This document shows positions 45,391 through 64,000 of a stretch of DNA of 64,000 bases, piece by piece (positions within the stretch are counted from its first letter, which is position 1; the number at the start of each line of letters is the position of its first letter). A program made the translations under genes and the position numbers. The stretch lies in NCBI GenBank assembly GCA_965202805.1, contig OZ241869.1, positions 1,440,001 through 1,504,000 on the forward strand, given 5' to 3'. The notes beneath the pieces are model-generated. The model ran no database searches and was not told the origin of the DNA. It saw nothing but the letters and a program-made list of their open reading frames with translations. The DNA comes from Longimicrobiales bacterium. GTDB lineage: Bacteria; Gemmatimonadota; Gemmatimonadetes; Longimicrobiales; Gaopeijiaceae.

Positions 45391-45502
45391 TGTGGCTCCC
45401 GCCTCCCGCGATGCCTCGCGCGTCTCGCTGGCTCCGCAGCTTGACCCCTTCGGGCTCGCCCGTCGTTGACGTCCACAAACATCGATGTCAAAATCGCTGG
45501 AA

Positions 45503-45530
45503 TGTCGCAAAACTACAAGATAATGTCGCA
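45503..45530 (-). promoter_or_regulatory. TGCGACA-N14-TGCGACA direct repeat upstream of swfA copy 2
   Basis: Plus strand AATGTCGCA at 45501 and 45522; 21-bp period. Confidence 0.6.
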
Positions 45531-46997: not shown

Positions 46998-47053
46998 TGC
47001 TTGGTTCTCCCTGGAACGTGAAGTAAATCCATCGGGTTGGTTCAGACGCGCTT

Positions 47054-47395: not shown

Positions 47396-47416
47396 CCTGT
47401 CCCTCCGTTTGGGATT
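47104..47416. repeat. 313-bp near-identical repeat; partner at 33327-33639
   Basis: By-eye alignment, one mismatch. Confidence 0.9.
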
Positions 47417-47465
47417 CTGGGATTAAGGGGAAACCCGTCACTCGCTATGACCTCACCTGACACGC

Positions 47466-47493
47466 CGTCGCATGTTGCATACGAAATGTCGCA
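47466..47493 (-). promoter_or_regulatory. TGCGACA-N14-TGCGACG direct repeat upstream of STAS copy 2
   Basis: Plus strand CGTCGCA at 47466 and TGTCGCA at 47487; 21-bp period. Confidence 0.6.
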
Positions 47494-47582
47494 AACCCGC
47501 GAAAGATGGCGCTCCGAGCGCAACGGGACAACCGCGAACTCACGCGCTCGCCCCGCTGACTCCCGCTGGCAGGGGTTATGCC

Positions 47583-48296
47583 TCAGGCTCCCCGCGTCGG
47601 CACGTCGCGGAACGGCAGCGACGGCGAACCGAAGGTGATCTCCTGCACCGCCTTCACGCTGCGGCCGCCGTACCGGAAGGGGATCACGAGACGGAACGGG
47701 GCGCCGTTCACGGGAGGGAGCGGCTCGTCGTTGAGCATCCACACGAGCATCGTCTGGGGATGACGCATGGTGGGGACTTCCTCGTCCGTGTAGTAGCCGT
47801 CGTGGGAGATGACGCGGCAGTAGTGCGCCGTGGGCGCCAGGCCGATCATGTCCAGGACGTCGTTGAAGCGGACGCCGGTCCACTTGACGATGCCTGTGGG
47901 CCGGGGCGCTCCGCACTGGAGCAGGGTCACCATGGAGTGCCGGGGGAGGTCCGCCAGGTCCTCGTAGCGCAGGGTGCCATGCAGGCGGGTGAGCCTGCTT
48001 GCGGCGATGCGGATGCTCGCGGTGCGGTAGTCGAGGTCGGTGTCGGGAGCCTCGCCCCCGGTGTATCGGTAGATGACGCCATCGATGGGCCCCGCGGAGC
48101 CCGGGGGATGCTCGGGCGCCGAGCCGTCGGCGTTCAGCGGCAGATCGGCGCGCGTCCGGATCTCGCCCTCCACCAGCCGATCCGGGAACTCCTGGGCTTC
48201 CTGCGCCAGCACCCGGTCCGGCTTCACCACCCCCATGGAAAGGCCGGCCACAGCCGTCCCCGATACCTTGATCGCGTCGCGTCGTGTGAGCTTCAT
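47583..48296 (-). CDS. Tat-exported molybdopterin-dependent oxidoreductase (sulfite oxidase/MsrP-like catalytic domain)
   Basis: LTRRDAIK twin-arginine signal; LQCG (Mo-ligand Cys), KWTGV, LPPVNGAPFRLVIPFRYGGRSVK; GGAGG RBS. Confidence 0.85.
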   Translation of the reverse strand: MKLTRRDAIKVSGTAVAGLSMGVVKPDRVLAQEAQEFPDRLVEGEIRTRADLPLNADGSAPEHPPGSAGPIDGVIYRYTGGEAPDTDLDYRTASIRIAASRLTRLHGTLRYEDLADLPRHSMVTLLQCGAPRPTGIVKWTGVRFNDVLDMIGLAPTAHYCRVISHDGYYTDEEVPTMRHPQTMLVWMLNDEPLPPVNGAPFRLVIPFRYGGRSVKAVQEITFGSPSLPFRDVPTRGA

Positions 48297-48512
48297 GGCG
48301 TGCCTCCCGGGCGTGGTGTTATGAGCCTGTCAACGGGGGTCAAGGTAGGATGAGGGGAGGGGGACGGCAAACGCGACGGCGGGTGGGATCGGGCTGCACT
48401 TCTGACCGGGAATCAGTGCGCAGTCTCTCGGTCCGGGTGGGACATCGTCAGGAGGCCGTACGCCTCCGCGGAGGGTGGCGGGTCCCCAGAGGTTGGACGA
48501 GCTGGCTCGTGT

Positions 48513-48540
48513 TACCATATGCCATATACCATATGAAGCA
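48513..48540 (+). repeat. Left island-flanking direct repeat TACCATATGCCATAT, inside three RCCATAT heptamers
   Basis: 48513-48527 is identical to 63454-63468; both are followed by CCATATG(A/T)AGCA. Confidence 0.8.
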
Positions 48541-48656
48541 GCTGGCGTTCGGCGGTACACCGGGGCCAACGCGCTCACGTCATGGCAAGCGCGGGCCGAA
48601 GTAAGGCACCGGACGCCTGGAAGGATCAGGAGCTGTCTGGTCGAAGCTGTCTCCGA

Positions 48657-51419
48657 CTACGATCGCTCCACGTTGACGTGGCCGCCCAAGCCCATCTCTT
48701 CGAGAATCTGCCGAAGCTCCGCTTCCATTTCGCGCGCGCGTTCCGAGTCGACGGTCACCGACAGCTCGATGCGCGCTCTGAGGTCGCTTCCAGACCTCAT
48801 CTTCGGCAACACCTTGATCCCGATCCGATTCCATGTCTCGGGCGGCACGGTTCCGACCAGCCGGAGTGTCGCCTCTCGCGCGGTCGGCTGCGTCTCCGTA
48901 GTCGGGTCAGTCTCCGACGTCAGAACGAGTGGCGGCCCAACAGGCGGCTCTGGCCGATCGGGCTCGGGGGCCGGGGACCGGAGCTCCTTGGCCTTGGCCC
49001 TGGTGAGCAGAAACATGCCGGCCTCGAAGACGACATCGTCCGGCGCAACCACCTCGTCGTGCCACACCCGATGGTACTCGCCACCGCTGCCGCTACCGGA
49101 GGCCAAGCCGAAGGTTCCATTCCCCACAAACTCCACGATCTTCCCGCGAAGCACGGCGTCTGGATCCACGAGGCGGGTAAGCGAGCCGTCGAGAAAGCTC
49201 TGGCGAAGCCCGGTCAGCGGCCAGGCGCCAGCTTCCTTCAGAGCAGGCGGCCAATGCCGCTCGATGTACCCGGCGCCCACGGACTCATTGAGGATGGCCT
49301 CCGACTTCAAAGCGCCAACGATCCGGCCACACAGGCTTTCGCTCGCACTGGCGTGACCGGCGCCAAGATCGATTACCCTCAGTCCCGTCCTGGACTTTGC
49401 ATCGCTGAATGCCACGAAGCGATAGCCTGCCCATACCTCGTCCCTCGCTTCTTCCTCGGCGCTCCTCACCTTCCTCCGGATATCGGCCCGTTCGGCGTGA
49501 TCGAACTCCGTTCCCAGAACCCCCTCTCTCACCTCGCGCTCGACCCGCTGCCAAGCGAGCCACAGTTCCACGCGTTCATGCAGTTCGCGGCCCGGTTTTT
49601 TCACGCACCATACCAGCGAACCCGGATACAACCGGGGAGACCTACCTCTTTCCTGTGTCCAGCCCGCGATATGCTCCGGTGCCTGACCATCGGCTCCCCA
49701 TTCCGTATCTGGATTCGCGATGACAAGCTTGAGGTGTGGCGAGTCCTGAATCTCCGTACTCTCCTCGGGGAACGAGACGACCCGCAGACTAGCACCCCGC
49801 GCGAACTCGTCTCGGACCAGCGTGCGGATGGCCGGATTGACCTCCTTCTCCCTGTCCAGTGACGCGCGGCGGTCGCTTACAACCTTCCTGAGCGTGGCCT
49901 GATGGTGGATCTTGAAACCGTCCGTCCCCACCTTGTGGATGAAGAAGCCCGATCCCTCTAGCGCCGCAGCGGCGTTGTCTATGGTCGTTGTCTCGACGTC
50001 CGGCTCGCCCAGCGCGAACCTCAACTCGGGCAAGTGAGCCACCTTGTCGACTTGTCCGCCGGACGATTCGAAGAGGATGGCTGCGCCAACACGGCGATGG
50101 ATGTCGCGGAGCGGACCCTTGGTATCCGCGTCCAATGCTCTGGCATGCGCCTCGCTTCCCGCGATATCCGCGATGATGGCAGCGTCGAGCCTCGATTCTC
50201 CCAACTGACCAAGGATGGTGCTTCGGAACCCTGAATCGTGGAGGGGCGCCGAACCCAGCGTGATCAACTGTTCCGTTCTCGCTTCCCTGAAGTGAGTTCG
50301 CGACGCCCAAGAAACCCATTGAGCCAGCATGGCCAAGGCTCCCCGGGTTTGCTGGAATTGCGGAAGCGCTCGCCATTTCCGCTGAAACACCGAAAGGGTT
50401 GCGGGATGGAACGGATAGCAGGCCTGGAACCGACTTCGGAGAGCATCCCTCGCTCTGGCCTCGGTTGTCGCCGTATCCACGGCCGTCCATTGGGGGGGAA
50501 GGCGGTTGCTCCTCTCGAAGCACCAGTCCGCATAGCTCCTGGCGATCCGGTTGCGGATTCTCGGGCTTCCCAGATCATCGAACAGCCTTCGGCGCACGAC
50601 CTCCCCGATCTCCGCCTCGTCATTGGCGATCAGATCACGCGCCACTCGACGCACAACCTTGGTGATGCGCTCCTGCCACTGCTGATCCCAGTCGGTCATT
50701 TCGACTTGGCTGCGGGGCAGACTGATGACCGCCGCCGCTTGCGTCCTACCCGTAACAGCAACGGTGAGGTTCTGGATGAAGGCGTGGAAGCCGTCTGCCA
50801 TGCCTCGGTGCCTGTTGACGAAGTTCAGGACTTCGTCGAACAACAACAGCACGGGCGCATCCGCGAGTGCGAATACCCTTCCGATGGCCTCCGTGCCCGG
50901 GGGAGTCGTGCTTGCGGCAGATCCGAGCGCCGCAACCCCCTGCTCTCCCGCCAGCTGACGGGCCATGTCGATCCACAAGGTCTCACGGCCTTCAGCCGGA
51001 TCCCATGCGTTGCCGACGAACACCGCAACCCGCGCTGCGGGAACTTGCCCGACACCCGTCTCGCGAAGGAGTGCCGGCACTCCTGGGAACCGCGCCGCGC
51101 CCAGTCCCGCGCTCGCCAGATGATACAACCCTGTCAGCGTATGGGTCTTGCCTCCCCCGAACTGGGTGATGAGGGTCAGCACCGGAGCGGTGTTCTCGCT
51201 CCGCCCCGAAAGGCGTCGTAGCACCATTCCGGAGTGCTCCTTCAACGCCCTCGTGAAGCAGGTTCGGGAGAAAAACTGACCGGGTTCCCGGTAGTCTTCC
51301 GGCGCGGTCCCGGCGACGACCTGCTCCAGCGCGATGGCGAACTCGTCGGGGCTGAAGGACCGCCCCTCGCGGACTTCCTTCCGGAGGGTGGCGACTTTGT
51401 ACCAGGGGTTACGGGTCAT
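48657..51419 (-). CDS. DUF499-family AAA+ ATPase
   Basis: PWYKVATLR, FFSRT, Walker A QFGGGKTH, Walker B LLLFDE, YPFHP, FQQTRGAL. Start moved to ATG 51419. Confidence 0.9.
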   Translation of the reverse strand: MTRNPWYKVATLRKEVREGRSFSPDEFAIALEQVVAGTAPEDYREPGQFFSRTCFTRALKEHSGMVLRRLSGRSENTAPVLTLITQFGGGKTHTLTGLYHLASAGLGAARFPGVPALLRETGVGQVPAARVAVFVGNAWDPAEGRETLWIDMARQLAGEQGVAALGSAASTTPPGTEAIGRVFALADAPVLLLFDEVLNFVNRHRGMADGFHAFIQNLTVAVTGRTQAAAVISLPRSQVEMTDWDQQWQERITKVVRRVARDLIANDEAEIGEVVRRRLFDDLGSPRIRNRIARSYADWCFERSNRLPPQWTAVDTATTEARARDALRSRFQACYPFHPATLSVFQRKWRALPQFQQTRGALAMLAQWVSWASRTHFREARTEQLITLGSAPLHDSGFRSTILGQLGESRLDAAIIADIAGSEAHARALDADTKGPLRDIHRRVGAAILFESSGGQVDKVAHLPELRFALGEPDVETTTIDNAAAALEGSGFFIHKVGTDGFKIHHQATLRKVVSDRRASLDREKEVNPAIRTLVRDEFARGASLRVVSFPEESTEIQDSPHLKLVIANPDTEWGADGQAPEHIAGWTQERGRSPRLYPGSLVWCVKKPGRELHERVELWLAWQRVEREVREGVLGTEFDHAERADIRRKVRSAEEEARDEVWAGYRFVAFSDAKSRTGLRVIDLGAGHASASESLCGRIVGALKSEAILNESVGAGYIERHWPPALKEAGAWPLTGLRQSFLDGSLTRLVDPDAVLRGKIVEFVGNGTFGLASGSGSGGEYHRVWHDEVVAPDDVVFEAGMFLLTRAKAKELRSPAPEPDRPEPPVGPPLVLTSETDPTTETQPTAREATLRLVGTVPPETWNRIGIKVLPKMRSGSDLRARIELSVTVDSERAREMEAELRQILEEMGLGGHVNVERS

Positions 51420-51455
51420 GGCGAATTCCCATCCTCCCACGTTGACTCACATTGC

Positions 51456-52742
51456 TCATTCAAGTGTCAGCTTGTTGAAATAGTGATCCAGGTCATTCAG
51501 ATTGGCACACAGTTGGACATCGGACGTGAGCAAGAGCTTCAGCACGGTGTTTTTCGCAAGCATCCGAATCTCGTCTCGCTCTCCTTTCGTCACCTCGTAG
51601 TGTCCGTCATGGACGATCTTAGAACGAATACGGTACAACTCCTTCGTTCGCTTGGCTATCCTTGCACGTTCCTCAACATTCCTTCCGAGCACCCTTGCTA
51701 CCCGTTGCGACAAACGGAAACTAAGTTCCTGTTTTTGAATCGGTAGCAAGACACACTCCAGAGAGATGGCGAACTGCAGAAACGATTCTTCCAACGTGGC
51801 CGCCACGCTGGCTCGGCCTCCCCAGCGGACTGAGTTTAGTAATATCTTTTCTGTCTTGTTGGGGTGTTTCTGGCATAACATATTCTCCACATGTTCCACC
51901 GCCTTCGCGATGGGCTCCGCACCTTCTCGGAGTTTGGTTAGGGACACGTGACCGAGCGGCCTTACTCGCGGCGGATCGTCGCCTTGTATGGATCCATCGG
52001 GTGCCACGGCCAAACGTAGAACAGGATGGCTCGCGGCAGCGTCGGGTGGGGGAATGAACAGCCAAGCCAAACAATACGGGATAAGATCTGAAAAAAAGTT
52101 CACGCATTCTATCGCAGCCCTTACTTGTCGCTCTCCAAGTACGACGGCAGCCCTCCCGTCTCGGGCCTCCGCAGTAACGATTGCGATCGGACGATCTAGT
52201 AGCGACTCAGACACTATGTCTTCAAAGTATGCGATGCTGGCTGACTCATCGGTGCCAAGCTCAACGTTCCGATGAGAAGTCAGAGCCGAAATCCGCTCTT
52301 CGTCACACTTCAAAAAACGGACCGGTCCAAAACGCGCTGGCAGAGATTCCGCGTCGAGCCCCCCAACAGGCACCCAGCACTTGTACTCTTTGGGTGAACT
52401 CTTCAGAACAGTCCTAAGCGTTGTGAGCGCATTGTTGATCCGAACATTCGGATCGCGGCTCCGTTGTTTTGGTATATCGACGGATTCGAAGACGGCATCC
52501 CTCAGAGCTGAATCGACGGCATATTCGGACAGGTCTTCTTGGCGAGCGAATTTGGTCAGAATCTCTTGAACGACCCGTCGATACTCTCTACTCAATTCAG
52601 CATCCAAGAACAGCATTCCCTCGCCATCCTTGGACCAAAAGGCGCCGGTGGGTGGGGGAAGGGTTCCAGGAACGGACCGAGCTGCCACCCCGACCCGCTC
52701 AAGAAAACTGCGCACGAATCGGAGACCCTTGGAGTGGCTCAC
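51456..52742 (-). CDS. HEPN-domain protein (ApeA/MAE_28990-like), putative RNase effector
   Basis: C-terminal ISLECVL...LSFRLSQRVA...LYRIRSKIVHDG (RxxxxH). GTG 52742 overlaps the upstream TGA. Confidence 0.8.
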   Translation of the reverse strand: MSHSKGLRFVRSFLERVGVAARSVPGTLPPPTGAFWSKDGEGMLFLDAELSREYRRVVQEILTKFARQEDLSEYAVDSALRDAVFESVDIPKQRSRDPNVRINNALTTLRTVLKSSPKEYKCWVPVGGLDAESLPARFGPVRFLKCDEERISALTSHRNVELGTDESASIAYFEDIVSESLLDRPIAIVTAEARDGRAAVVLGERQVRAAIECVNFFSDLIPYCLAWLFIPPPDAAASHPVLRLAVAPDGSIQGDDPPRVRPLGHVSLTKLREGAEPIAKAVEHVENMLCQKHPNKTEKILLNSVRWGGRASVAATLEESFLQFAISLECVLLPIQKQELSFRLSQRVARVLGRNVEERARIAKRTKELYRIRSKIVHDGHYEVTKGERDEIRMLAKNTVLKLLLTSDVQLCANLNDLDHYFNKLTLE

Positions 52743-54856
52743 GCTGCCCTCCCCCAACGCCGCTGGACGTACCTGACCGTATCCTTCACCGACAATGGCC
52801 GAGTCGCATTTCCGGTCCGAAGGTAGAATGTGGCGATGTTGCGCTCCTCCACGTAGACGGGTTCATCGCTGGACTCAACGGTAATCTGGCAGATGTCCGC
52901 CCCGTCGATCTCGTGGAATGTTATCGTCAGATAGGTCGACGATACGGGTCCTAGGTCGCGGGCGATGATCTGCTGCAGGTGGAGTTCGAAACCGTCCCTG
53001 TCGCTCTTCCTCAGGGTGGCGTAGTCGTCATCGATCCCGACCGCCGCACCCGAATCGTCTACACCGATGAGGAGCGTTCCGCCCCTGGCGTTCAGGAATC
53101 CGGCCAAGGTCTTGGCTACGACCTTTTCGAGGCCCTTGTTCACTCCCTCTAGCCGCCGGTCCCAGCGGAGACTCGACTTGAACTCAACGGCTTCGCTTTC
53201 TCCGGCAACCATCATCTGCCGAACGCTATGCTCATCGGTGCGTCCCTCTTCGCCTCTGGGGATCCAGCCAGCGATGAACTCGTTGATCGCACGGGCCAAC
53301 AGGGCACGGCGTGCGGCGAGAAAGTCGAGGTAGTTGTCGGGATCCCAGAGTTCGCGGTCCAGTGGGATGGACTGCGCCCGCAGGACACCGGGCTGGTTCT
53401 CGTTGACTTCGGGAAGGTACTCGGCGGGCGCCGAAGAACGGACCTCCCTCGGTGCCTTCTGCGTTAGGAACACCCGGTTGGCCAGCTCGTTGTTGGTCTT
53501 CCGGTCTCGATTGGAGTCGAAACCGGCCTTCTTTAGCACGGGAAGCGAGAAGACGTGGTGGCGGTCCAACACGTTGCTTCGCCCCATCGCTCTGTCGTAA
53601 ATGCGAATCCCCGTGAACCAATCTCGGGAACCTCTTGCCTGTGCCACAATCTGGGCCAGGGGTGCAGCAGTGGAACGCACGCCCGCTTCGACCAAGTCCG
53701 ACGTTTCAAGCGTCACTCGCCCGCGCTCGCGGAGAATCGCGGCCTCCAACTCCGGCGTGGGATCCGGGTCACTGCCCGTCACTAGGGCGACATCCTGTTG
53801 GAGCTTGGTCTCGGTGGCGCCGGAGTAGCGGGCCCACAGACCCGCCAGATAGATCCAGCGAATGAACCGCCGCTTGAGACTCTCGTTCGGAAAGCTCCCA
53901 CCCTGGCGCGCAAGAAAAATCGTGGCGGGCATGAGCATGTAGGTGGTGGGAAGGTCCTTGGCGTTGCCAACGAACGCTTCGTGTCGCAGCACGGCCACCA
54001 AGTGCTCGAACGCGGGCTGCATATCCCTCCATCCGGCTTGCAGCACCTCTGCGGGGGTCCGCAAGAAGGAACCCTCGAGCCGGATCGAGTCCGTCGCAAC
54101 ACCGGCCAGACACCTCAGGAAAAAAGCGAAGTCCATGGCAAAGCCCCGATCCGCCATCTTCGCCTGAAACTCCCGCATCTCCGCCCTGGCTTCCGGCCAG
54201 ATGCTGCAAACGTGCGCCAGCGCGAGGTCCGCAGCCTTCAGCGGCGTCCCCTTGCTGTTGATCCGATTAAAGATCTCGACGACTTCCGACACCCCGAACT
54301 CATCACCCGACACTTGGTCGATGGTGTATCGGTAGTCCCGGATCTGGTCGAGGCGACTGAGGTTGGCGAGATTCTGCTGAAACACGTCCCGCTCTTCCTC
54401 GTCGAGTTTCGGCATCCTCCTGAGCAGACCGTGCAGGGTCTCGCTCAGGAAATTGTGGACTCCGATCCATGCCGGGTTTTTCTGCATCCGGGTTTTCTGC
54501 CAGAAACGGAACTCCTCCGTTTGCACGTTGAAGTACAAGTCGAAGAACAGGCTCTCGCCTTCGTAGAACCGGGGAGGCCTTCCCCTGAACAACACGTAGA
54601 GCGTCGTCAAGCGCTGCTGTCCGTCCAGGAGGAGCAAGGACTTTCCGTCATCCGACGGGTCTGCGCCACGAACCACCGAAGGCTTGTAGGTGCTCCAGAT
54701 CAGCAGATGTCCCGTGGGATGTCCGCGGTAGAGAGACTGCATCAATCCCCGCACCTGTTTGCGGGTCCAGACGTATCCCCGCTGGAATTCGGGGAGCAGG
54801 ATTTCGTTCCGGCTGATCTGGTTCAGCAAGTACTCGATCGATCTCACCTCATGCAT
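52739..54856 (-). CDS. DUF262 (GmrSD-like) - HNH-like - Schlafen/AlbA_2 fusion protein
   Basis: LPEFQRGYVW, LDGQQRLTT, FNRINSKG (DUF262); DRHHVF...NELAN (DUF1524-like); ESEAVEFKSS and GFLNARGGTLLIGVDD (AlbA_2). Confidence 0.85.
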   Translation of the reverse strand: MHEVRSIEYLLNQISRNEILLPEFQRGYVWTRKQVRGLMQSLYRGHPTGHLLIWSTYKPSVVRGADPSDDGKSLLLLDGQQRLTTLYVLFRGRPPRFYEGESLFFDLYFNVQTEEFRFWQKTRMQKNPAWIGVHNFLSETLHGLLRRMPKLDEEERDVFQQNLANLSRLDQIRDYRYTIDQVSGDEFGVSEVVEIFNRINSKGTPLKAADLALAHVCSIWPEARAEMREFQAKMADRGFAMDFAFFLRCLAGVATDSIRLEGSFLRTPAEVLQAGWRDMQPAFEHLVAVLRHEAFVGNAKDLPTTYMLMPATIFLARQGGSFPNESLKRRFIRWIYLAGLWARYSGATETKLQQDVALVTGSDPDPTPELEAAILRERGRVTLETSDLVEAGVRSTAAPLAQIVAQARGSRDWFTGIRIYDRAMGRSNVLDRHHVFSLPVLKKAGFDSNRDRKTNNELANRVFLTQKAPREVRSSAPAEYLPEVNENQPGVLRAQSIPLDRELWDPDNYLDFLAARRALLARAINEFIAGWIPRGEEGRTDEHSVRQMMVAGESEAVEFKSSLRWDRRLEGVNKGLEKVVAKTLAGFLNARGGTLLIGVDDSGAAVGIDDDYATLRKSDRDGFELHLQQIIARDLGPVSSTYLTITFHEIDGADICQITVESSDEPVYVEERNIATFYLRTGNATRPLSVKDTVRYVQRRWGRAA

Positions 54857-54960
54857 ATGCCATCCTCGGTACTGCGGCGCTCGATGGGCTCAGTAGTCTC
54901 GACGGACGGTAACATATGTGCCGACGCAAGGCTCGCCCATGCCGCAGCATCGGACCAGCG

Positions 54961-55563
54961 CTACCCGGAAGACTCCACAAGCCGCTGGATGCACCGGATC
55001 GCCCGCTTCAGGCTGTCCGACCGCTCGGAAGCGATCGGCGGACGCCACTTGGTGCTGGCGAACTCGGCCAACCGGGACGTGTAGGCGGGTCCAACGGCTC
55101 GGCCGCTGCCGCTACGCGGCACCATATCTTCGCGGATGTCTCGGCGACGTGAGCGGCGTGCGAGGTTGGCGACGAATTCCTTTGGGTTGGTCACACTCTC
55201 GGGGTCTTGAGGGATCCGGCTTTTCGCCACACTCAGAAAGCGCGCTGCCGCCTCGCGATCCGCCAATAACCAGGTCTCCACTTCGCGCAGGGCGATGCGA
55301 AAGCAAAGATGCGGAGCAGGATTCGGCAGCCATTCCGCGCGGAGGACCGCCGCGCAATCGGCGTCGTTATCGAGGTCCACAAGGATAACCCAGGGCGCGT
55401 GGCGGGCGGCCTGATTGAACCCTCCGATTCTCTGCTTGAGATAGGGCTTTCCACGGCGTCCATAGACGGTGCCGGTATCGCCGCCGGCATGCCTGATCAG
55501 CCTGCGCACGACGGCTTCGTCCACGACTCCTTCGACTGCCGCACTGAAGACGGATAGGGGCAA
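54961..55563 (-). CDS. TOPRIM-like / DUF4276-like protein, partner of the ABC ATPase
   Basis: AVEGVVDE, LVDLDND (DxD), REVETWLLAD, C-terminal SDSL. Start inferred at TTG 55563, 4 nt after the ATPase stop. Confidence 0.75.
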   Translation of the reverse strand: MPLSVFSAAVEGVVDEAVVRRLIRHAGGDTGTVYGRRGKPYLKQRIGGFNQAARHAPWVILVDLDNDADCAAVLRAEWLPNPAPHLCFRIALREVETWLLADREAAARFLSVAKSRIPQDPESVTNPKEFVANLARRSRRRDIREDMVPRSGSGRAVGPAYTSRLAEFASTKWRPPIASERSDSLKRAIRCIQRLVESSG

Positions 55564-55567
55564 TGGC

Positions 55568-56707
55568 CTACGCGTCCGCAAAAAGTGCGAGTTGGCCGGG
55601 ATTGGTCGGACGAGTCCTAGGGATGACCACGTCGGCCAGCGAAAGGCCAGCATCAAGGAGCTGCTTCACGTCCGAGAGCGAGGTCGTGGGGAAAACCTTG
55701 GCGCCTTCCTTCTGCGGCACGAACAACAGGGTCTCGTCAAGGCCGATCCCGCTGTCCGCCAGGAGATCCGGCGAATGGGTACTCAAGAAGACCTGCCTCC
55801 TGGTGTGTCGTTGCACCCGTGCCAGCATCTGAGGTAACACGCGCACGATCTCTGGATGCAGCGAGAGCTCCGGCTCTTCCAGCAGCAGCGGTCCCTTACC
55901 ATCCATCGTCGCCCACAACACTCCCATCAGGCGAAGGGTGCCGTCCGACAGCTGCCCTTCGCTTTGCCAGGCACCGTGCGGTCGCCAGTGCTGGTATCTG
56001 GCGCGCAGGTGAGGAACACCCCGGACATCCCGCGTCAACTCGATCTCCTCCAGTTGAGGGACGGCGACACGGAGAGCCGTCTGGATCTTGCGCATGCGCG
56101 CGTTCCGCGTTCGCTCGTTCGTTCGGGCGACCTGTTCCAGGAAGTCTCCGCCGTAGGGGTCGTTGGATCTTCCTACCGAGCGATCCGGCTCGCGGACGAG
56201 CTGAGGCACGATGTGGAGGTAGCGGATGGAAGCGAAGAACGTGGACAGGGCGCGGAATTCCAGGTTCACGTTCACCTGTTCAAGATGGGTCTGCGTCAGG
56301 CGAGCTGCGTCGTCACGGTCATCCTGGTCGGGGCGTTCAAGAATCGTCTGGCCATCTCGAATGACTCGCTCGCTCCGCACCAACGGCCTGCGCTGATTGT
56401 CCTGGTTGAAGGCCAGTTGGTAGTCCCAGGAGTGGCCTTCGCCGTTCTCGAGTTCCACATCGATCTCGATGTCGGAGTATCGGCGGGCCGCGAGACAGCG
56501 AATCGTGCTCACGCCGTCCCGCCGACGGACGGCTTCGCCGAAGCCGCCCCCCACCGAAGCAAGATCCCGAAGGAAGCGAAGCGCATCCAGAAGATTGGAC
56601 TTCCCGGAGGCGTTGGGACCCACCAGAAACATCCGATCCTGGAGGTCGACCTCAACGCTCTCGAAGTTCTTCCAGTTCTTCAGGCGGAGCTTGCGGAATC
56701 GAAGCAT
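55568..56707 (-). CDS. Soluble ABC-type ATPase (AAA_21/AAA_15)
   Basis: LKNWKNF, Walker A GPNASGKS, signature LSDGT, Walker B LLLEEPE, H-loop STHS. Start moved to ATG 56707. Confidence 0.9.
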   Translation of the reverse strand: MLRFRKLRLKNWKNFESVEVDLQDRMFLVGPNASGKSNLLDALRFLRDLASVGGGFGEAVRRRDGVSTIRCLAARRYSDIEIDVELENGEGHSWDYQLAFNQDNQRRPLVRSERVIRDGQTILERPDQDDRDDAARLTQTHLEQVNVNLEFRALSTFFASIRYLHIVPQLVREPDRSVGRSNDPYGGDFLEQVARTNERTRNARMRKIQTALRVAVPQLEEIELTRDVRGVPHLRARYQHWRPHGAWQSEGQLSDGTLRLMGVLWATMDGKGPLLLEEPELSLHPEIVRVLPQMLARVQRHTRRQVFLSTHSPDLLADSGIGLDETLLFVPQKEGAKVFPTTSLSDVKQLLDAGLSLADVVIPRTRPTNPGQLALFADA

Positions 56708-56747
56708 GGCAGTGGGTTCGCGAGTTGTCAGCCCTACACGTCGCAGG

Positions 56748-59699
56748 TCACCTTGGAACCGCCAGCAACATGGCGTCCAAGAGGCGTTTTTCCTGGCTAC
56801 CACGAGGATACAGGGCGGAGAGCGCGTTGGCGAGACGCAGGAACTCCGGTCCCCGATCCTGTTCCTCGCTGATCAGCCTCCGAAGGGCGTTCGTGTGGCC
56901 GCTCCGCTGGAGTAGCATGGCCGCGTGAACGCGATCAAGGGTGGTTGCGTCGGGTTCCCGGAGTTCAGCATCACTGCCGAGGATCTTGCCCTTGCGACCA
57001 CGAACGGCTCGTGGTGCCCCAGTTGGTTCCCAGTCGGGGAAGAGGGTCGCTTGAAGATCGGCGTCCTTCTCGAGCTTCCCCGCCGCGACGGAAGCACCTT
57101 CTTCACCGAAGAGTTCCTTAGCCCGCTTGGCCACGGGTAGGAGACGCACAATCCCCTTCTTTTGCTCGATTATTCGATTCGTCCATCGGTCGAGGTTGAT
57201 GCCCATCGGCTGTGCGAAGCGCCGGACAACGTCGAACGGCAGGCTGAGACCCTTGGCAACCGCCTTCGCGATGGCTTCCTCGTCCCTCCTAGCCTTGTTC
57301 TTCTCTTCGGGCTGTTCAGTGCTCTGAAGTGTCCAAAGGAAAAGCGCGGTCAGCCGCGAGTCTTCCTCAAGAGCCCCAATCTGGCCTCCAAAATCTGTCG
57401 ATCTCGCTGTCCCCAATACTCGTTGAAGCGCTGTCCGGCCAACAACCTCCCAGATCTTCTCTAGGTATTCCGGCAGCTTGACCCTTCGCCCCGCGGGTGT
57501 TTCGACAGCACGGTAGCGACTGAAGATTTCCAAGGCGGGCCCGATACACGCAAATACCAAGTCCGCACCACGGATGCCTTCGGCCTGCAAGCGCTCAATC
57601 CAGTCGGCGACACGGCCCGGCAACTCCTGCAGGACTTCGCTCCAATCCCCAATTGGAGCTTCGTTAGCACGTGGTCGACAGACTAAATGGACGCTGGTAG
57701 CGAGCGCAGCAGAATCCCGAGCACGGAGACGCGCACTCCTCTCGGTCGCGATTGGCCATGATGCAGTAATCGTCCATCCGCCTCGGATCATTCCGGCAAG
57801 CAGTGCTTCCCATCCTTCCGTGGTCTTGTGCGCAAAAACAACGCAACCTATTCCCTCGCTATTCAGCACCCGGCAGCCTTCCGCGAAGGTTTTGGACATC
57901 ATCTCTTCGAACCACTCACGGTCCTTTGGGCGACCTTGCACTTGTTTAGTCTTGTCCTGGACGATCTCGGATCGTTTCGGCGATAGAGGGTTGTCAGGAT
58001 CAAAGGGATCTCGTAGTACCGCGTGATCGGGCAGCGCTCGTTTCAGCCACACCAAGAAGAAATCCGACAGATCGGAGTATGGTATCGCATCGTAGTAGGG
58101 CGGATCCGTGAACCATACATCACTGGTCTCATCAGGCAGAGGATGTTGAATCGAATCTGCGAGCTCAGTCTGTCCCACGTGCGTTAGGTCGCGAACGCTC
58201 TTCTCAATGCAGTCAGCAACGTCTTTGAAACAGTTTTTTAGTCCACCTGCATAGGACACATCGGGATACATTTCCGGGAAATCCCAAGACATCGGTAGCG
58301 TTTGCATTCCAAACGCTCCGGCAACAGTCTCGCTCTTCCTGTGCCATTTGCTAAGCACGTTGCAATGCCGAAGGAGTTTCCCCAATGACAACGCTACCAG
58401 ACGCTGAAGTGCTTGTGTTTCCATTACTGCACTGTTTGCCAATCGCGACAAGAGCAATATAATGGCCATTTTTTGGCGGGCTGTGAACAAGTCTTGCCAT
58501 TCAAGTATCCCATATCGTTGAACACGAAAACCAAGAGTGCCGACCGGTGGCAATCGTTCGTCCGGCACGGGACAAGCGCCCTTCCTTCCGAGTCGCTCCC
58601 ATTTCTGGAGGATGTCCGCAAGCCGGTCTTGCGAGCGGCGCACAGCCTCATAGTCGGCCTCACATGGTGACCTGTAATACCGCCTCTTCGCGCCCGGTGG
58701 TACGGTCGCCACTGCCATCATCCGTGCTCCACCAATGCGACAACCCTCTTCGTCAAAGACAACATCGGTACCGCCGCGTTGGATCGCAATCTGATGTCGT
58801 ACTCGCTCACGGGACAGCACCGAGCCACAGCAAAGGCAGGTTGCTTTGGCTCCGGACACAGTCGCACCACCTACCTCGCTGGCCGAAATCGGCTTGAACA
58901 ACTCAAACGCAAGTCTCGGCTGACTTCCAGCAGCCCGGATTATCCGATGCCGAAGTGCCCGCCTGCGCTTTGGCTTTTGACACAACCAAAAGGAACGCAT
59001 CAGCGGAATTTCTGCGCCGCAAGCTGGCGCTTCACAGCGCACTGTACGCGCCCAGAGAAAGGCAAACGGAGTCGCTCCGTCGGGGTCAGCAGGAAATAGC
59101 TCAGCCAGATCTTGTTCCGCCTGCCGTCGAGTATCGTTGGCGACGCGACGAAACTCGTCAATCAACGGTCCCCCACCCCGTGGGATGTCGTCTAGGAGTG
59201 CCTTAAGTATGAGGCACGCCACAGGATTCAGATCGCTAGCAAAGGTGTCACAACCCAACCGGAGAGCTTCGAATGGAATTGATCCACCACCCGCGAATGG
59301 GTCTACCACTAAGGGAGATGCCGGGCCGTGGGCAGCACTGACCAGGGCCCGTGCCACCCGAAGGTATATGGGATGGCCAGCCATCTCCCAACTAGAAAAG
59401 ACACCAATGAACCAGAGCAATGCCTTTCGCAGTTCCATGTCGTTCGCCGGGCGACGACGAATTTCTTGCAGGATTTGCCGGGCTTGTTTCTTGAAACCGC
59501 TTGGACAATGGTCGTCGCATGGGTCTGGTAGCAGCAATGCGATTAGCAATCCCCGACAGGAAGCCAACGGCCTCCGAGCCCACCAAAGATGAAGCTTAGA
59601 CGGGTGGCCCAGAGTTGTATTCTGTCGGACAGCATGCCGGGATACTTCGGCTATCGGAAAATCTACCTCAGCAAGGCGTTTGCAACTCCTAGGAATCAT
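56748..59699 (-). CDS. DUF1156 adenine-specific DNA methyltransferase with Zn ribbon
   Basis: LHLWWARRPL, motif I DPFAGGGSIP, motif IV TDPPYYD, Cys clusters CEAPAC and CLCC. Start moved to ATG 59699. Confidence 0.9.
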   Translation of the reverse strand: MIPRSCKRLAEVDFPIAEVSRHAVRQNTTLGHPSKLHLWWARRPLASCRGLLIALLLPDPCDDHCPSGFKKQARQILQEIRRRPANDMELRKALLWFIGVFSSWEMAGHPIYLRVARALVSAAHGPASPLVVDPFAGGGSIPFEALRLGCDTFASDLNPVACLILKALLDDIPRGGGPLIDEFRRVANDTRRQAEQDLAELFPADPDGATPFAFLWARTVRCEAPACGAEIPLMRSFWLCQKPKRRRALRHRIIRAAGSQPRLAFELFKPISASEVGGATVSGAKATCLCCGSVLSRERVRHQIAIQRGGTDVVFDEEGCRIGGARMMAVATVPPGAKRRYYRSPCEADYEAVRRSQDRLADILQKWERLGRKGACPVPDERLPPVGTLGFRVQRYGILEWQDLFTARQKMAIILLLSRLANSAVMETQALQRLVALSLGKLLRHCNVLSKWHRKSETVAGAFGMQTLPMSWDFPEMYPDVSYAGGLKNCFKDVADCIEKSVRDLTHVGQTELADSIQHPLPDETSDVWFTDPPYYDAIPYSDLSDFFLVWLKRALPDHAVLRDPFDPDNPLSPKRSEIVQDKTKQVQGRPKDREWFEEMMSKTFAEGCRVLNSEGIGCVVFAHKTTEGWEALLAGMIRGGWTITASWPIATERSARLRARDSAALATSVHLVCRPRANEAPIGDWSEVLQELPGRVADWIERLQAEGIRGADLVFACIGPALEIFSRYRAVETPAGRRVKLPEYLEKIWEVVGRTALQRVLGTARSTDFGGQIGALEEDSRLTALFLWTLQSTEQPEEKNKARRDEEAIAKAVAKGLSLPFDVVRRFAQPMGINLDRWTNRIIEQKKGIVRLLPVAKRAKELFGEEGASVAAGKLEKDADLQATLFPDWEPTGAPRAVRGRKGKILGSDAELREPDATTLDRVHAAMLLQRSGHTNALRRLISEEQDRGPEFLRLANALSALYPRGSQEKRLLDAMLLAVPR

Positions 59700-59889
59700 G
59701 CGGACTTCTGGTCCTTTTCGTAAGGTAATCCAAGGGTTCCCGAAATGCTGAAGAGTTGATGCTGGAAGTGCGTACAATAGTTGCGGATGTGGTCACGATC
59801 ATCGATCCGTGCCCTAGAGACTTGATCCCCACAACTACGGAGCAGCCAATGGACCGGCGGTCGTGGGCCAGCGACGGAGCGCCCATCAT
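59689..59889 (-). CDS. Possible 66-aa ORF bridging helicase and methylase
   Basis: ATGA overlap with the helicase stop and 11-bp overlap with the methylase start; no recognisable motif. Confidence 0.25.
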   Translation of the reverse strand: MMGAPSLAHDRRSIGCSVVVGIKSLGHGSMIVTTSATIVRTSSINSSAFREPLDYLTKRTRSPHDS

Positions 59890-62800
59890 GATCTATCCCT
59901 TCTTGAGATTTCGTACGATCCCTCATCTTCTCTAATCTTCATAGGTTGGATGATTGCATCAACCTCCAGCCAGTAATGTTGCACCTTCGTGACTTCACGC
60001 CAAGGACTGCGCGCAGGATCCGGCACGGGCTCCTGGAGCTGCGGTTCGCCCGCACAATTCGTAACCACATAAAGCCAGTAGCAGTCTGGACGATCCTCCG
60101 CTACTCGTCGCTCGTTGGGGGTGAGCAGTATCGTTCCCTTGGCCCCGGCCAGACCCTTGATCTCGATTAGCCGAAGTTCGCCAGAGCGGAGGTCAAGACT
60201 GGTGATGTCGTAGCCCAAGTTCTTCTCGTGAACGTCCGTGACCTGACACCCCCGCGACTCTTCGTAGTCCATGACGACGCACATGGCGGTCATCTCGGTC
60301 TCAGGATTGGGTCGCAACCGGCGGACATCCGGTGATCCGCGCTCGGGATGCGGCAGGACCAACACGCTAGCCAGCCGCTCGACCCCTTGGAGCGTTACCG
60401 CACGCTGACGGGTTAGCTCCTCCCGACGTTGATTGCGGCGCGCCATGACGTCGTCGTGTCTGGCTTCAGCCTGAGCAAGTCGTCCCTGGGAGCCCGTGAC
60501 TCCCCTTGTAACCTCGTCGGCAGCGCGACCGATTTCATCGTCGATCCGCTGCAGGACTTCGGTCAAAGACAGTTCGACATGCCTTGCGATACGGTCGGAC
60601 TCGGCCAGACGATCCTCCCGAACCTCCTTGATGAAGGGCATCAGCGCATGCTGGCTGAGCCACGAGGTCGGGTCGGGCAGAGCGGCGGCGGGCGGTAGTT
60701 CATGAGGCACAGGAGCGGGGATGAGGTTACCCAGGGCATCTGCTTCCCTCAGTGTCGGCGTCCCGTCGCATGCCAATTCGACCGTGAAGAGCCGCTCGTG
60801 GATCACCTTGCCGAGCCCATCCACGACACGAGCACGGTAGAAGTCGAGGCGAGAAGGCTCATCCTGCGCGATCGAATAGAAGCAGGCACCTGCGGAAAAG
60901 GCCTCCTGTGCCCGGTCGCGGGCATGCCGCCGGAGCGCCTCGAAGAGCGGATGTCCCGGAGTGACCCACTCAAGATGATGTTTCTCAGCGACCTTGCGAT
61001 CCGTTGAGAGACGGGGATAGCGCACGGCAAGGTCCTGGAGTTTCCAATCTGCTTCGCGCTCATATCTCCTCAGGGACAGCGGCGTCCGTCCCGGGGCAAA
61101 GGTGTGTGCGGGGCGGCGGAGCGGCTTCAGGGGCAGGCGAGCATCCCGGGCGCACTCGTTGATGAATCGCGCGATCGTCTCCGGCACCATGCGGCGTTCC
61201 TGGGCCCGCGCCTTGCGCTCGACCAGCATATCGAGGTTCAACTTCCTCGCGGCCAATCCCTCCAGTGCATTCTGGCAGATGCTGCGGAAGTGGCCCTCAT
61301 CGACATTCTTCAGGAGCCGTTCCTCAAGATCCTGGTGGCCTAGCCTGCCGGCGTAGTAGTCCCGAAGGACGCGTTCGACCTGTGCCGAAGGGAGCACTTC
61401 GCCCACCACGTTGAACACCGCGTCATCGTCCAAAGCGTCCCGGATCTCCTGAAGCTTCTGGTGCAGCCGCCCCAGCACCCGTCCTTCGATGGTGTTGGTG
61501 GCGACAAAGTTGAAGATCAGGCAGTCCTCCTGCTGTCCGTAGCGGTGAATCCGGCCCATGCGTTGCTCGAGCCGGTTCGGGTTCCAGGGGATGTCGTAGT
61601 TGAACAGGATGTGGCAGCACTGGAGGTTGATGCCTTCGCCGGCCGCCTCGGTGGCCACGAGAACCTGGATGGCGCCCTCGCGGAATTGCTGCTCCACGTA
61701 GAGCCGTGTTCCGGGTTCGTCCCGCGATCCCGGCTTCATTCCCCCGTGGATGCACCCGACTACAAAGCCCCAGGCTTCAAGCCTTTGCATCAGGTAGGAG
61801 AGGGTGTCCTTGAACTCCGTGAAGATCAGGAGACGCTGGTCGGGTCTGTCGAAGAACCCCTCCTCCTGCATGATCTGGTGGAGATGCGCGAGCTTCGCCT
61901 CGTTTCCGGAGTCCTCGACTGCCCTCGCCTCTTCCGCCAACTCTTTGAGTTCCGCGATTTCCGCCCGTACCTGCTCCGCGTTGCCGGCAAGCGTAATCGC
62001 TTCCAGCATCCGCTCCAGGCGCTCGCGCTCCACGTCTTCGTACTCCTCCAACTCCTCGAGGTCGGGCAGGTCCGGCGGTGCCGTACGGGCCAGACGTTCG
62101 GCCTGTCGCAGTCCATCATCGAGACGCTTGGCCCGGTTCTCCAGCGACCGGCGCAGGGAGTGCGTACTGGAAGCAAGCCGTCTCTGGTAGAGCGACATCA
62201 GGAAACCGACGGCGCGGGCGCGCGGATCATTGCTTCGCTCGGCCGCCCGGCGGCTTTGCCGCTTCACAAATCGCGTCACACGCGTGTAGAGGTCGAATTC
62301 CGCCCCATCGATCCTGAAGTCGGCCGTGCGGGGGATGCGCTTCGTGAAGACCGGTTGCGCGGCCCAGGTACCGTCCGATTGCCGTGTCGGGAAGTAGACC
62401 ATCGCTTCCTTTGTACGACGCAGGTAGAACGGCGCCCTCTGTCGTTCCATGGCCTCGTTGATGGAACGCACGTCGGCGTATGCATCGCGGTCCAGCAACT
62501 GAAGGAAGAGCGTGAAGTTCTTCGCATCACCCTTATGCGGCGTGGCTGTCAGCAGCAGGATGTGGTCCGCCGCGTCGCGCAGGATCTCTCCCAGCTTGTA
62601 GCGCAGGCTCTTGTGGCCTTCGTCGCGCGCCGACATTCGATGCGCCTCGTCGACGATGACGAGGTCCCAGCCTGCCTGCTGTAGTCCGGGAAGGATATCC
62701 TGGCGCTTGGCGAGATCAAGCGAAGTGATGACCTGGTTCTGCTCAAGCCACTGGTTGACGCCGAACTGGTCGCGGATGTCGCTCCCCTTCAACACGATGA

Positions 62801-63338
62801 ACTTCTCGTCGAACTTCTCCCTCAGCTCCCGCTGCCACTGGAAGGAGAGGTTGGCGGGACAGACCACGAGAACGCGTTCGATGAGGCCTCGTAGCTTGAG
62901 TTCGCGGACGAGCAGGCCCGCCATGATGGTCTTGCCGGCACCCGCGTCGTCGGCCAAGAGGAACCGCACGCTGGGAAGCTTGAGGAGGTGTTCGTAGACG
63001 GCCTCCAACTGATGCGGAAGCGGGTCGACGCGCGAGATGGACAGCCCGAAGTACGGATCGAACTCGTAGGCGATGCCGAGCGAGTAAGCCTGGAGTCCAA
63101 GGCGGAGAAGCCGGCCATCGCCATCGTAGGACAGAGCGGCGTCGGCGATGGTTAGGCTGGCTACGTCACTGGATGTGAGGGTTACCCGACGGAATCGCTC
63201 GGACCGCATGCCGACCAAGCCTACCATCCAGATGTCGGAACCGCTCGCTCGCACGGTCTCCACCTGCATCGGCTCGCTGAACAAGGGGCCGGTGACGATC
63301 TGGCCTTCCTGCAGCGTGGTTGGGTCGGATGTCGTCAT
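59886..63338 (-). CDS. SNF2-family helicase with C-terminal DUF3883 (PD-(D/E)xK-type) nuclease domain
   Basis: PLPHQ, LADDAGAGKT, DEAH, TATPH, GEGINLQ, QRMGRIHRYGQ; C-terminal GYDITS...IEIKG...LTPNE. Confidence 0.92.
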   Translation of the reverse strand: MTTSDPTTLQEGQIVTGPLFSEPMQVETVRASGSDIWMVGLVGMRSERFRRVTLTSSDVASLTIADAALSYDGDGRLLRLGLQAYSLGIAYEFDPYFGLSISRVDPLPHQLEAVYEHLLKLPSVRFLLADDAGAGKTIMAGLLVRELKLRGLIERVLVVCPANLSFQWQRELREKFDEKFIVLKGSDIRDQFGVNQWLEQNQVITSLDLAKRQDILPGLQQAGWDLVIVDEAHRMSARDEGHKSLRYKLGEILRDAADHILLLTATPHKGDAKNFTLFLQLLDRDAYADVRSINEAMERQRAPFYLRRTKEAMVYFPTRQSDGTWAAQPVFTKRIPRTADFRIDGAEFDLYTRVTRFVKRQSRRAAERSNDPRARAVGFLMSLYQRRLASSTHSLRRSLENRAKRLDDGLRQAERLARTAPPDLPDLEELEEYEDVERERLERMLEAITLAGNAEQVRAEIAELKELAEEARAVEDSGNEAKLAHLHQIMQEEGFFDRPDQRLLIFTEFKDTLSYLMQRLEAWGFVVGCIHGGMKPGSRDEPGTRLYVEQQFREGAIQVLVATEAAGEGINLQCCHILFNYDIPWNPNRLEQRMGRIHRYGQQEDCLIFNFVATNTIEGRVLGRLHQKLQEIRDALDDDAVFNVVGEVLPSAQVERVLRDYYAGRLGHQDLEERLLKNVDEGHFRSICQNALEGLAARKLNLDMLVERKARAQERRMVPETIARFINECARDARLPLKPLRRPAHTFAPGRTPLSLRRYEREADWKLQDLAVRYPRLSTDRKVAEKHHLEWVTPGHPLFEALRRHARDRAQEAFSAGACFYSIAQDEPSRLDFYRARVVDGLGKVIHERLFTVELACDGTPTLREADALGNLIPAPVPHELPPAAALPDPTSWLSQHALMPFIKEVREDRLAESDRIARHVELSLTEVLQRIDDEIGRAADEVTRGVTGSQGRLAQAEARHDDVMARRNQRREELTRQRAVTLQGVERLASVLVLPHPERGSPDVRRLRPNPETEMTAMCVVMDYEESRGCQVTDVHEKNLGYDITSLDLRSGELRLIEIKGLAGAKGTILLTPNERRVAEDRPDCYWLYVVTNCAGEPQLQEPVPDPARSPWREVTKVQHYWLEVDAIIQPMKIREDEGSYEISRRDRS

Positions 63339-63453
63339 GGAGGCAGGATCAACGGTCGCGTCAAATCACCAAGGCGACCGGAATATGTCATAATCGGGCC
63401 AGTCTTGCCTATCTCGCCGGTGCGGAAACGTTGGCGAGCAGTCCGCAGAGGTG

Positions 63454-63474
63454 TACCATATGCCATATGTAGCA
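63454..63474 (+). repeat. Right island-flanking direct repeat TACCATATGCCATATGTAGCA
   Basis: First 15 bp identical to 48513-48527. Confidence 0.8.
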
Positions 63475-63477
63475 ACC

Positions 63478-64000
63478 TCACCCCTGGTGGAGGTCGATGC
63501 CGGCCGCCAACGCTCTCGCCCTCGCGAACCGACCCGCCAGACCCGGACGGCTCTCCCAGTTGGCGGTGATGTGCAGGCCAGCCGGCAGCCGGAGCCCCCG
63601 GAGTGCCGACCACGAGGTGTCCCATGCGGGCATTGCGGGGTGGGCGATGGCGATTGGCTCCGCGTCGTATCCGGTGCAACGGTGGAATTCGGAAGCGGCG
63701 ATTGCACCGAGCGCGGCACCACTGCTCGCGCTGGCGACCTCGGGCCGCGCGTTGTCGGGACAGGTGCGAAACTCGCGTGTGTCGGAGAGGGCTTCGGCCC
63801 ACCCTGATCCGCCGCCGACCCCGTGGCCACCTCGGCGGGCGCCTTCCTGGTGACCGGCGCGCAAATAGGCCGTGTACACCCCGGTACGGTCCCGGTGGCC
63901 CCCTTCCCCGCCGAACAGGCAGTGGCTGAAGGTCACGCCACGCAGGGGGCACGACTCCGCCAGCGACATCTGGAAACCGATCCCGCGAAGGTCGGTGTCG
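63478..64000 (-). CDS. 3' part of a hypothetical gene entering from the right edge; weak pentapeptide-repeat-like text, possibly degenerate
   Basis: Frame is open to the window edge: DTDLRGIGFQMSLAESCPLRGVTFSHCLF; the remainder is unconvincing. Confidence 0.25.
   Translation of the reverse strand, partial: DTDLRGIGFQMSLAESCPLRGVTFSHCLFGGEGGHRDRTGVYTAYLRAGHQEGARRGGHGVGGGSGWAEALSDTREFRTCPDNARPEVASASSGAALGAIAASEFHRCTGYDAEPIAIAHPAMPAWDTSWSALRGLRLPAGLHITANWESRPGLAGRFARARALAAGIDLHQG

Follow-up and report, generated by a model that had tools for sequence, protein, structure and literature searches.

An intact Hma locus with HEC-01, a long pSlfn7-type protein and a HEPN gene of an unnamed family embedded between its methylase and ATPase genes

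The stretch of DNA analysed here (the window) comprises 64,000 nucleotides (nt) from a Longimicrobiales bacterium (assembly GCA_965202805.1, contig OZ241869.1, positions 1,440,001 to 1,504,000 of the forward strand). At 48657-63338 it carries seven minus-strand open reading frames (ORFs) without internal stops. The locus is real and intact: an Hma system in which HEC-01, a long protein of the pSlfn7 type and a HEPN gene of an unnamed family are embedded. From the upstream end, with lengths in amino acids (aa), the genes are:

59886..63338, minus strand: hmaA, SNF2 helicase with a C-terminal NOV_C (DUF3883) PD-(D/E)XK nuclease, 1150 aa
56748..59699, minus strand: hmaB, DUF1156 amino-methyltransferase, about 983 aa, probable ATG start
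55568..56707, minus strand: HEC-01A, ABC ATPase, 379 aa; PADLOC HEC-01A, E 7e-157 over nearly the full profile
54961..55563, minus strand: HEC-01B, TOPRIM-like DUF4276 protein, about 200 aa, probable TTG start; PADLOC HEC-01B, E 2e-66
52739..54856, minus strand: GmrSD-like DUF262, linker, degenerate HNH-like domain and Schlafen (AlbA_2) domain, 705 aa, long pSlfn7 form
51456..52742, minus strand: HEPN-domain protein of an unnamed family with an ApeA-like layout, 428 aa; its start overlaps the upstream stop
48657..51419, minus strand: hmaC, DUF499 STAND/ORC-type ATPase, 920 aa, without an N-terminal HEPN domain

A first-pass annotation of this DNA had described seven co-oriented, closely spaced genes in this order, and the ORFs and gap sizes confirm it. 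With refined starts (for hmaB the ATG at 59699, its longest ORF beginning at TTG 59777) the intergenic gaps measure 186, 40, 4, 104, -4 (a GTGA overlap) and 36 nt, from which we infer that the seven genes form one operon. A promoter and terminator scan of the locus was uninformative, since its 2 promoter and 10 terminator sites are at chance level (3.2 and 11.4 expected), and no run with RNA data was listed for the locus. Contigs of sequencing run X2 match most of the locus without any differing letters, and the whole cargo (the four genes between hmaB and hmaC) lies on a single X2 contig of 5,735 nt; as X2 comes from the same study as the best-matching run, it checks the assembly and is not independent. 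In run X5, from another study, overlapping contigs with roughly 85-95% identity carry the four cargo genes in unchanged order. An X5 joint that skips the cargo (side of 48 nt, letters between unknown) possibly stems from another organism and was not used. No flanking repeats or attachment (att) sites beyond chance-level pairs were found in 46000-64000, and the flanks of the locus have no copy elsewhere in the genome except for one 32-nt match.

Pfam assigned the seven proteins, in order, to SNF2 plus NOV_C/DUF3883, DUF1156, AAA_21, DUF4276, GmrSD_N plus SLFN_AlbA_2, no family, and DUF499. When the PADLOC and Pfam comparison proposed in the first-pass annotation was run, the core matched HmaA, HmaB and HmaC, and the ATPase-TOPRIM pair matched HEC-01A and HEC-01B. 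The HmaA match (E 1e-172) spans residues 48-1093 and is accompanied by Pfam SNF2, Helicase_C and NOV_C; Walker A, DEAH and QRMGRIHR motifs are present, as are D1044, E1059, K1061 and E1076, the D/E/K/E set described for the NOV_C nuclease. HmaB (E 1e-91; Pfam DUF1156) has DPFAGGG and DPPY motifs, and HmaC (E 7e-92; Pfam DUF499), the sole match in the genome, a GGGKT Walker A. Catalytic motifs are thus present in all three core proteins, and the helicase-NOV_C protein, the DUF1156 N6-type methyltransferase and the DUF499 ATPase are encoded co-oriented in the order A-B-C. Domains, residues and gene order together identify the core as the already named Hma system, also called Type-1 BR.

Hma was named in Payne 2021 (PMC8565338); in the classification of Rakesh & Krishnan 2026 (PMC12839542) it is the three-gene Type-1 BREX-related (BR) form, and DUF3780 together with a PLD helicase marks Type-2. 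The first-pass annotation had measured the core against the DUF3780/PLD system and found two parts lacking, which was the wrong reference: since the core is the three-gene Hma, by definition without DUF3780 or PLD, and those parts are reserved for Type-2, nothing is missing here. Identity with the Type-2 BR/Gao system was considered and rejected, as Pfam finds no DUF3780 or PLD on the seven proteins and the corresponding NCBIfam models reach only 113, 187 and 164 bits, far short of their respective cut-offs (1200, 1000 and 1100). Work on a Halomonas homologue showed nicking of supercoiled DNA by the NOV_C domain and restriction of T4 by HmaA on its own (Liu 2024, PMC11232893), making HmaA the only Hma component with demonstrated anti-phage activity in the text seen; methylation-based self-protection is not demonstrated for any Hma in the portions of the literature covered.

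With regard to base composition, the G+C content at third codon positions (GC3) is about 0.75 for hmaA and hmaC, 0.575 for hmaB, 0.57 for the HEPN gene and 0.74-0.77 for the other three cargo genes. The differing values among the cargo genes point to separate origins. Across loci, hmaB is also less conserved (about 60-65%) than HmaC (about 70%), and its lower GC3 and conservation are as expected if a specificity gene were swapped separately.

The first cargo module is an ABC ATPase gene followed by a TOPRIM gene. HEC-01A contains the motifs GPNASGKS, LSDGT, LLEEP and STHS, and HEC-01B has VEG and DLD acidic motifs, with DUF4276 scoring 25.3 bits, under the Pfam cut-off of 30.2. Gene order and near full-length profile matches make this pair the named candidate HEC-01. 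Membership in PARIS was rejected, as the DUF4435 TOPRIM partner AriB is absent and the partner present matches DUF4276 and HEC-01B only.

In the second module, the 705-aa protein, Pfam places GmrSD_N at 8-216 and SLFN_AlbA_2 at 553-688, PADLOC reports HEC-05 (E 3e-40), the N-terminal 370 residues match BrxU (7P9K, E 6e-23) and the C-terminus weakly resembles human Schlafens. The fusion of DUF262 to a Schlafen domain with Ex4(E/D)xK is that of pSlfn7, a group of 109 DUF262-Schlafen members (Perez Taboada 2026, PMC13056530), and the pSlfn7 table of that paper holds a full-length homologue with 33% identity (NC_017457.1:52940-55066). A DUF262-Schlafen gene alone lowered T7 plating 538-fold (PMC13056530). 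The gene that we take as EcoSlfn7, by record, domain content and position, encodes 589 aa (NZ_CP104472.1:4519514-4521283); orthology to it was rejected, as BLASTP gives E 0.004 over 63 residues only and the DUF262 motif alone is common to both. The long form with an HNH-like domain is not among the tested pSlfn7 constructs seen in PMC13056530.

At least 120 full- or near-full-length homologues of the 705-aa protein exist at 63-74% identity, and the following counts refer to the best 120 of 3,672 hits. The DGQQR motif and Schlafen E553/E558/K560 are invariant (120/120), whereas only 21 proteins have the complete HNH set of His base, structural Asn and helix Asn (H434-N460-N469). In a tree built without the HNH columns the 21 group together as a single clade, and on this tree parsimony counts about 26 changes at H434 and about 14 at position 469; outside this clade none of the 99 close homologues has Asn469, and 49 of them also lack H434. 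The window protein retains H433, H434 and N460, and has Pro at position 469, which is aligned to BrxU N518. From the alignment and general knowledge of HNH enzymes, we take position 469 to be a metal ligand. Pfam gave no match for the HNH domain of the window protein, and the structure model (mean predicted local distance difference test score, pLDDT, 61.8, with the DUF262 and HNH parts below 50) is too poor to judge the site. Among distant DUF262-HNH proteins (131 of 150 representatives aligned over the site) the full HNH set is found in 29 of the 42 proteins fused to Schlafen, in 47 of the 56 short ones and in 25 of the 33 with other extensions. Because distant Schlafen-fused relatives mostly keep the set, its decay is specific to the 705-aa clade and does not go with Schlafen fusion as such. 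Such decay in DUF262-Schlafen fusions is not described in the literature covered, which was partial, and the invariant Schlafen motif beside a decayed HNH set may be a new detail.

One possible, more speculative reading is that the 705-aa clade is a GmrSD/BrxU chassis with a decaying DNase site, in which sensing of modified DNA now triggers the Schlafen tRNase. On this reading, sponge-associated bacteria of several phyla would carry the protein mainly within Hma loci, where it would protect against phages whose modified DNA lets them evade Hma. Somewhat less plausible to us is a dual effector, that is, a BrxU-like type IV nuclease still able to attack modified DNA, to which the Schlafen domain adds a second line. 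The residues retained in the window protein and the 29 distant fused relatives with a full set speak for it, as do the BrxU mutants, of which D474A and H475A were dead and N485A, N519A and E528A still cut in vitro (PMC8565348). Against this stand the absence of Asn469 in all close homologues outside the single 21-member clade, often together with loss of H434, and the Pro at 469 itself, the aligned BrxU N518 not being among the mutants seen in that paper.

Two sets of relatives may be mentioned here. The same DUF262-HNH chassis bears other C-terminal extensions in 33 representatives (P0144-P0284), mostly unannotated and including weak Swt1-like HEPN and DUF5655 matches. The window genome itself has a second, distant DUF262-Schlafen gene (C1:2678019-2680316, about 784-aa frame) and another Schlafen-domain gene (C1:3210720-3211184).

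The first-pass annotation had labelled the sixth gene HEPN, and although the 428-aa protein gave no match in Pfam, PADLOC, NCBIfam or sequences of the PDB, the fold search backs the label. Its model has a pLDDT of 82.5, and residues 292-412 match HEPN structures (best Z 9.8, root-mean-square deviation 3.8, 115 aligned), the top rows all being HEPN proteins at Z 9.8-8.4, moderate values for a helical fold. Together with the RSKIVH motif at 373, this fold places the protein in the HEPN superfamily. It has 14 homologues at 34-60% identity, and RxxxxH is present in 14 of the 15 aligned members. No ApeA chains are listed among its structure matches; its Atlas neighbours lie at 0.85-0.89, all leads thus being below 0.9, and HEPN_Apea occurs in 15-17% of their members. 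ApeA is a HEPN anticodon nuclease (tRNase) activated by deoxydinucleotides, which are DNA breakdown products (bioRxiv 2026.01.26.701840), and this activation offers a lead, by analogy, for a HEPN gene sitting among nucleases.

To place the cargo among other Hma systems we compared 76 fetched loci with HmaC (the best 80 of 96 stretches) plus two metagenome loci; slot counts refer to the 73 in which the end of hmaB and the start of hmaC were both present, after removal of L062, L064, L065, L072 and L075. The hmaB-hmaC gap exceeds 250 nt in 62 of the 73, holds one or more co-oriented ORFs of at least 145 aa in 46, four or more such ORFs in 8, and a HEC-01A-type ATPase in 27. The proposal in the first-pass annotation that this slot is a cargo hotspot is therefore borne out by the 46 cargo-bearing loci, and its cargo does recur inside homologous loci: 27 have a HEC-01A-type ATPase, L053 and L054 repeat HEC-01 with GmrSD-Schlafen, and L035 has GmrSD-Schlafen and the HEPN gene in its hmaA-hmaB gap. 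Cargo varies by locus, and an identical module can be found in either gap, GmrSD-Schlafen for instance in the B-C gap of 4 loci and the A-B gap of 6. Other Hma cargo, from scans of 46 and 42 cluster representatives, includes ABC-PIN, ABC-TOPRIM fusions, OLD, TIR, YhcG, AIPR and a Cas13a. The complete four-gene set was seen only in the window, in a congener (G001, see below) and in run X5.

Several further features of these gaps were observed. Transposases and gene fragments also sit in them, and short duplicated hmaB ends or starts recur between cargo genes in L001, L002, L003, L012, L013, L016, L027, L045 and L048, while L063 has hmaB twice in full; together these suggest that recombination at the ends of hmaB might exchange cargo and methylase. 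In L055:2234-6227, from a Ca. Entotheonella record, a 1234-aa Cas13a-like gene (PADLOC E 1e-227) with two RxxxxH motifs lies between hmaA and hmaB and is followed by a one-spacer array with two identical 37-nt repeats; by profile and motifs it is a putative type VI CRISPR effector carried as Hma cargo. The spacer has no exact match among viral contigs, and no report of Cas13 as Hma cargo was found in the literature searched. A methylase, kinase-ORC-CDC6 and CARF-like gene set occupies an Hma gap at L052:1318-6051, and an ORC-CDC6 and CARF-like pair another at L013:2071-4309.

Embedding as such is in print. Embedded genes occur in 931 of 1,485 Hma systems (62.7%), and HEC-01 to HEC-09 were named, picked for also occurring outside Hma; defence was confirmed for 7 of the 9, not for HEC-01 or HEC-09, the active ones working alone on plasmids, and PrrC-type back-up and BrxU-type complementarity were discussed (bioRxiv 2024.01.29.577857). 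TOPRIM-ABC, GmrSD, HEPN and Schlafen are listed as back-up effectors inside BR loci (PMC12839542). The first-pass annotation knew of no description of this combination and had named a match to an already named system as grounds for giving its proposal up. Such a match exists for the core and the slot as well as for two modules out of three, HEC-01 and pSlfn7, and the PrrC-style back-up idea has likewise been published.

Two congeners bear on how the cargo relates to its host system. In G001 and G002 the core has been lost at the same chromosomal site, next to a heme operon. About 32 codons of hmaB and 20 of hmaC are left in G001 (L108:7735-13406), and stubs of hmaA and hmaB with a truncated, split hmaC in G002 (L109:9187-13574), which has no other hmaC match at E<=1e-30. 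HEC-01A (90-92% identical) and HEC-01B are intact in both, with ratios of nonsynonymous to synonymous divergence (dN/dS) of about 0.06 and 0.13-0.17. The GmrSD-Schlafen gene carries a frameshift in G001, and in G002 everything beyond its codon 47 is deleted; G002 also lacks the HEPN gene, which in G001 is interrupted by a premature stop close to its end. It should be underlined that these are only two related genomes and that single-base breaks in such assemblies may be errors. Considering all cargo genes, dN/dS is about 0.05-0.19, and synonymous divergence (dS) is 0.9-1.6 compared with 0.16-0.44 for most flanking genes (0.65-0.98 for the adjacent hemY), which suggests that the cargo block may have been replaced en bloc by recombination. 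An unrelated gene of ~455 aa follows the site in both congeners.

Since HEC-01 stays intact after core loss, it is apparently, in these genomes, not a toxin that the core must keep silent. PrrC-like control by the core is likewise disfavoured for HEC-01 because the pair is intact in two of two core-less congeners at the same site, and the proposal that the cargo fires when restriction is inhibited finds no support there. For GmrSD-Schlafen and the HEPN gene the data would fit either dependence on the core or general decay.

We consider it likely that the three exchangeable modules in the methylase-ATPase gap are self-contained anti-phage defences that share an operon and its transfer and do not need core failure as a trigger. 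Through its NOV_C domain HmaA would nick the DNA of invaders, as its Halomonas homologue does against T4, and the predicted roles of HmaB and HmaC are to mark self DNA and to scaffold recognition. On sensing a phage protein, HEC-01A would set free the TOPRIM nuclease HEC-01B, much as AriA of PARIS binds Ocr directly and releases a tRNase (PMC11464382); by this analogy HEC-01 would need no contact with Hma. In the DUF262 protein the NTPase/DNA-binding part would serve as sensor and Schlafen as tRNase, the HNH site being probably weak or dead, and the HEPN protein would act as a ligand-gated RNase like ApeA. All cargo catalytic motifs are present except the HNH set. Also in favour of this reading are the identities of the core and HEC-01, the frequency of embedding in Hma and the activity of seven of nine embedded candidates on their own, the variable cargo that moves between gaps, the survival of HEC-01 after core loss, the differing GC3 of the cargo genes, direct Ocr sensing by AriA and the T7 protection by a lone DUF262-Schlafen gene. 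Together the parts would give a redundant, layered defence in which a DNA-targeting first line is combined with abortive modules that arrest translation.

Several observations weigh against this reading. HEC-01, the one ABC ATPase HEC without demonstrated activity, gave no defence in its single published test (bioRxiv 2024.01.29.577857), T4 passaged through HmaB-overexpressing cells was unchanged in infectivity (PMC11232893), and the E. coli DUF262-Schlafen protein tested in publication is only remotely related to that of the window. G001, moreover, retains an hmaB-hmaC pair elsewhere in its genome. Two further points fit dependence of GmrSD-Schlafen and HEPN on the core: GmrSD-Schlafen and the HEPN gene are broken or lost in both core-less congeners, and close GmrSD-Schlafen homologues sit mostly inside Hma though Hma was not the query, namely in 3 of 5 metagenome loci (of the other two, one lies next to Hma) and in 4 of 5 hits among 493 genomes, a set of groups centred on Hma-bearing genomes that overlaps the HmaC loci.

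These last two points also speak for an alternative along the lines of the first-pass annotation, which we regard as unlikely: at least GmrSD-Schlafen and/or HEPN would be linked to the Hma complex or to what it produces, and would fire when Hma is inhibited or cuts DNA. The HEPN family lies in or just before hmaB in 3 of 76 hmaC loci and is full-length in only 2 of 301 genomes of the phylum, both at the window site; activation of ApeA by DNA breakdown products and the PrrC precedent discussed for Hma would fit as well. However, HEC-01 survives core loss, modules exchange freely among gaps and partners, GmrSD-Schlafen also occurs without a nearby Hma gene (L081, L128 and the H2 plasmid), and the core-loss pattern comes from those two relatives. 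That the gap is a genomic sink tolerating insertions, its cargo selfish or near-neutral toxin-type genes of little protective value, would agree with the inactive HEC-01 test, the transposases and fragments, the decay of core and cargo in the congeners and the block replacement suggested by dS, but is improbable given the purifying selection on every cargo gene (which selfish maintenance would also give), the invariant Schlafen and DUF262 catalytic residues and the protection by seven of nine embedded candidates.

As a system the locus is ordinary, Hma with embedded defences being published and the majority state. It is nevertheless a ready test case, with an intact HEC-01, a member of an unnamed HEPN family and a long DUF262-Schlafen protein whose sister clades include both HNH-intact and HNH-degenerate ones. 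The core-less congeners that keep HEC-01 bear on whether an embedded module is tied to the system around it or merely co-located. Elsewhere in the window, 38185-45510 holds a putative type I polyketide synthase-like ORF of 2441 aa, recognised from its sequence, with a paralogous stretch at about 30944-33761; in G001 an insertion of about 1.6 kb interrupts the gene that corresponds to this ORF.

Compared with known systems, the 428-aa protein shares with ApeA a single-gene arrangement, a large N-terminal region and a C-terminal HEPN domain with RxxxxH, whereas Pfam finds neither HEPN_Apea nor ApeA_NTD1 in any of the 15 family members. The 705-aa protein has DUF262 and Schlafen with Ex4ExK in common with pSlfn7, of which the two tested genes are of a ~590-aa form (591 aa in the published table; 589 aa in E. 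coli). With HEC-05/BrxU and GmrSD it shares DUF262 with DGQQR, a helical linker, an HNH-like C-terminal domain and embedding in a methylation-based system, but it has an extra C-terminal Schlafen domain and HHVFS in place of DHIYP, and has lost the Asn aligned to BrxU N518. In PARIS (AriA/AriB), too, the gene for an ABC ATPase sensor precedes one of TOPRIM type, and the AriA profile matches at E 5e-35; HEC-01 differs by its smaller ATPase and its DUF4276-like instead of DUF4435 partner, and the HEC-01 profiles score far higher. The window pair agrees with HEC-01 in its ABC ATPase and TOPRIM protein, full-length PADLOC matches and embedding in Hma, with no structural differences seen. The Gao restriction-like or Type-2 BR system (DUF499, DUF3780, DUF1156, PLD-helicase) has the DUF499 ATPase, DUF1156 methylase and SNF2 helicase in common with the window, which has no DUF3780 or PLD. 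Compared with the published search for Hma-embedded genes, which allowed up to three per gap (bioRxiv 2024.01.29.577857), the window has four in one gap. It also differs from described Hma systems in that its hmaC lacks the N-terminal HEPN domain and has a separate HEPN gene directly upstream instead. Shared with Hma are the three co-oriented genes for a helicase-NOV_C protein, a DUF1156 methylase and a DUF499 ATPase in identical order and, as reported for Halomonas hma loci (PMC11232893), an AAA_21 pair between hmaB and hmaC together with DUF262 inserts.

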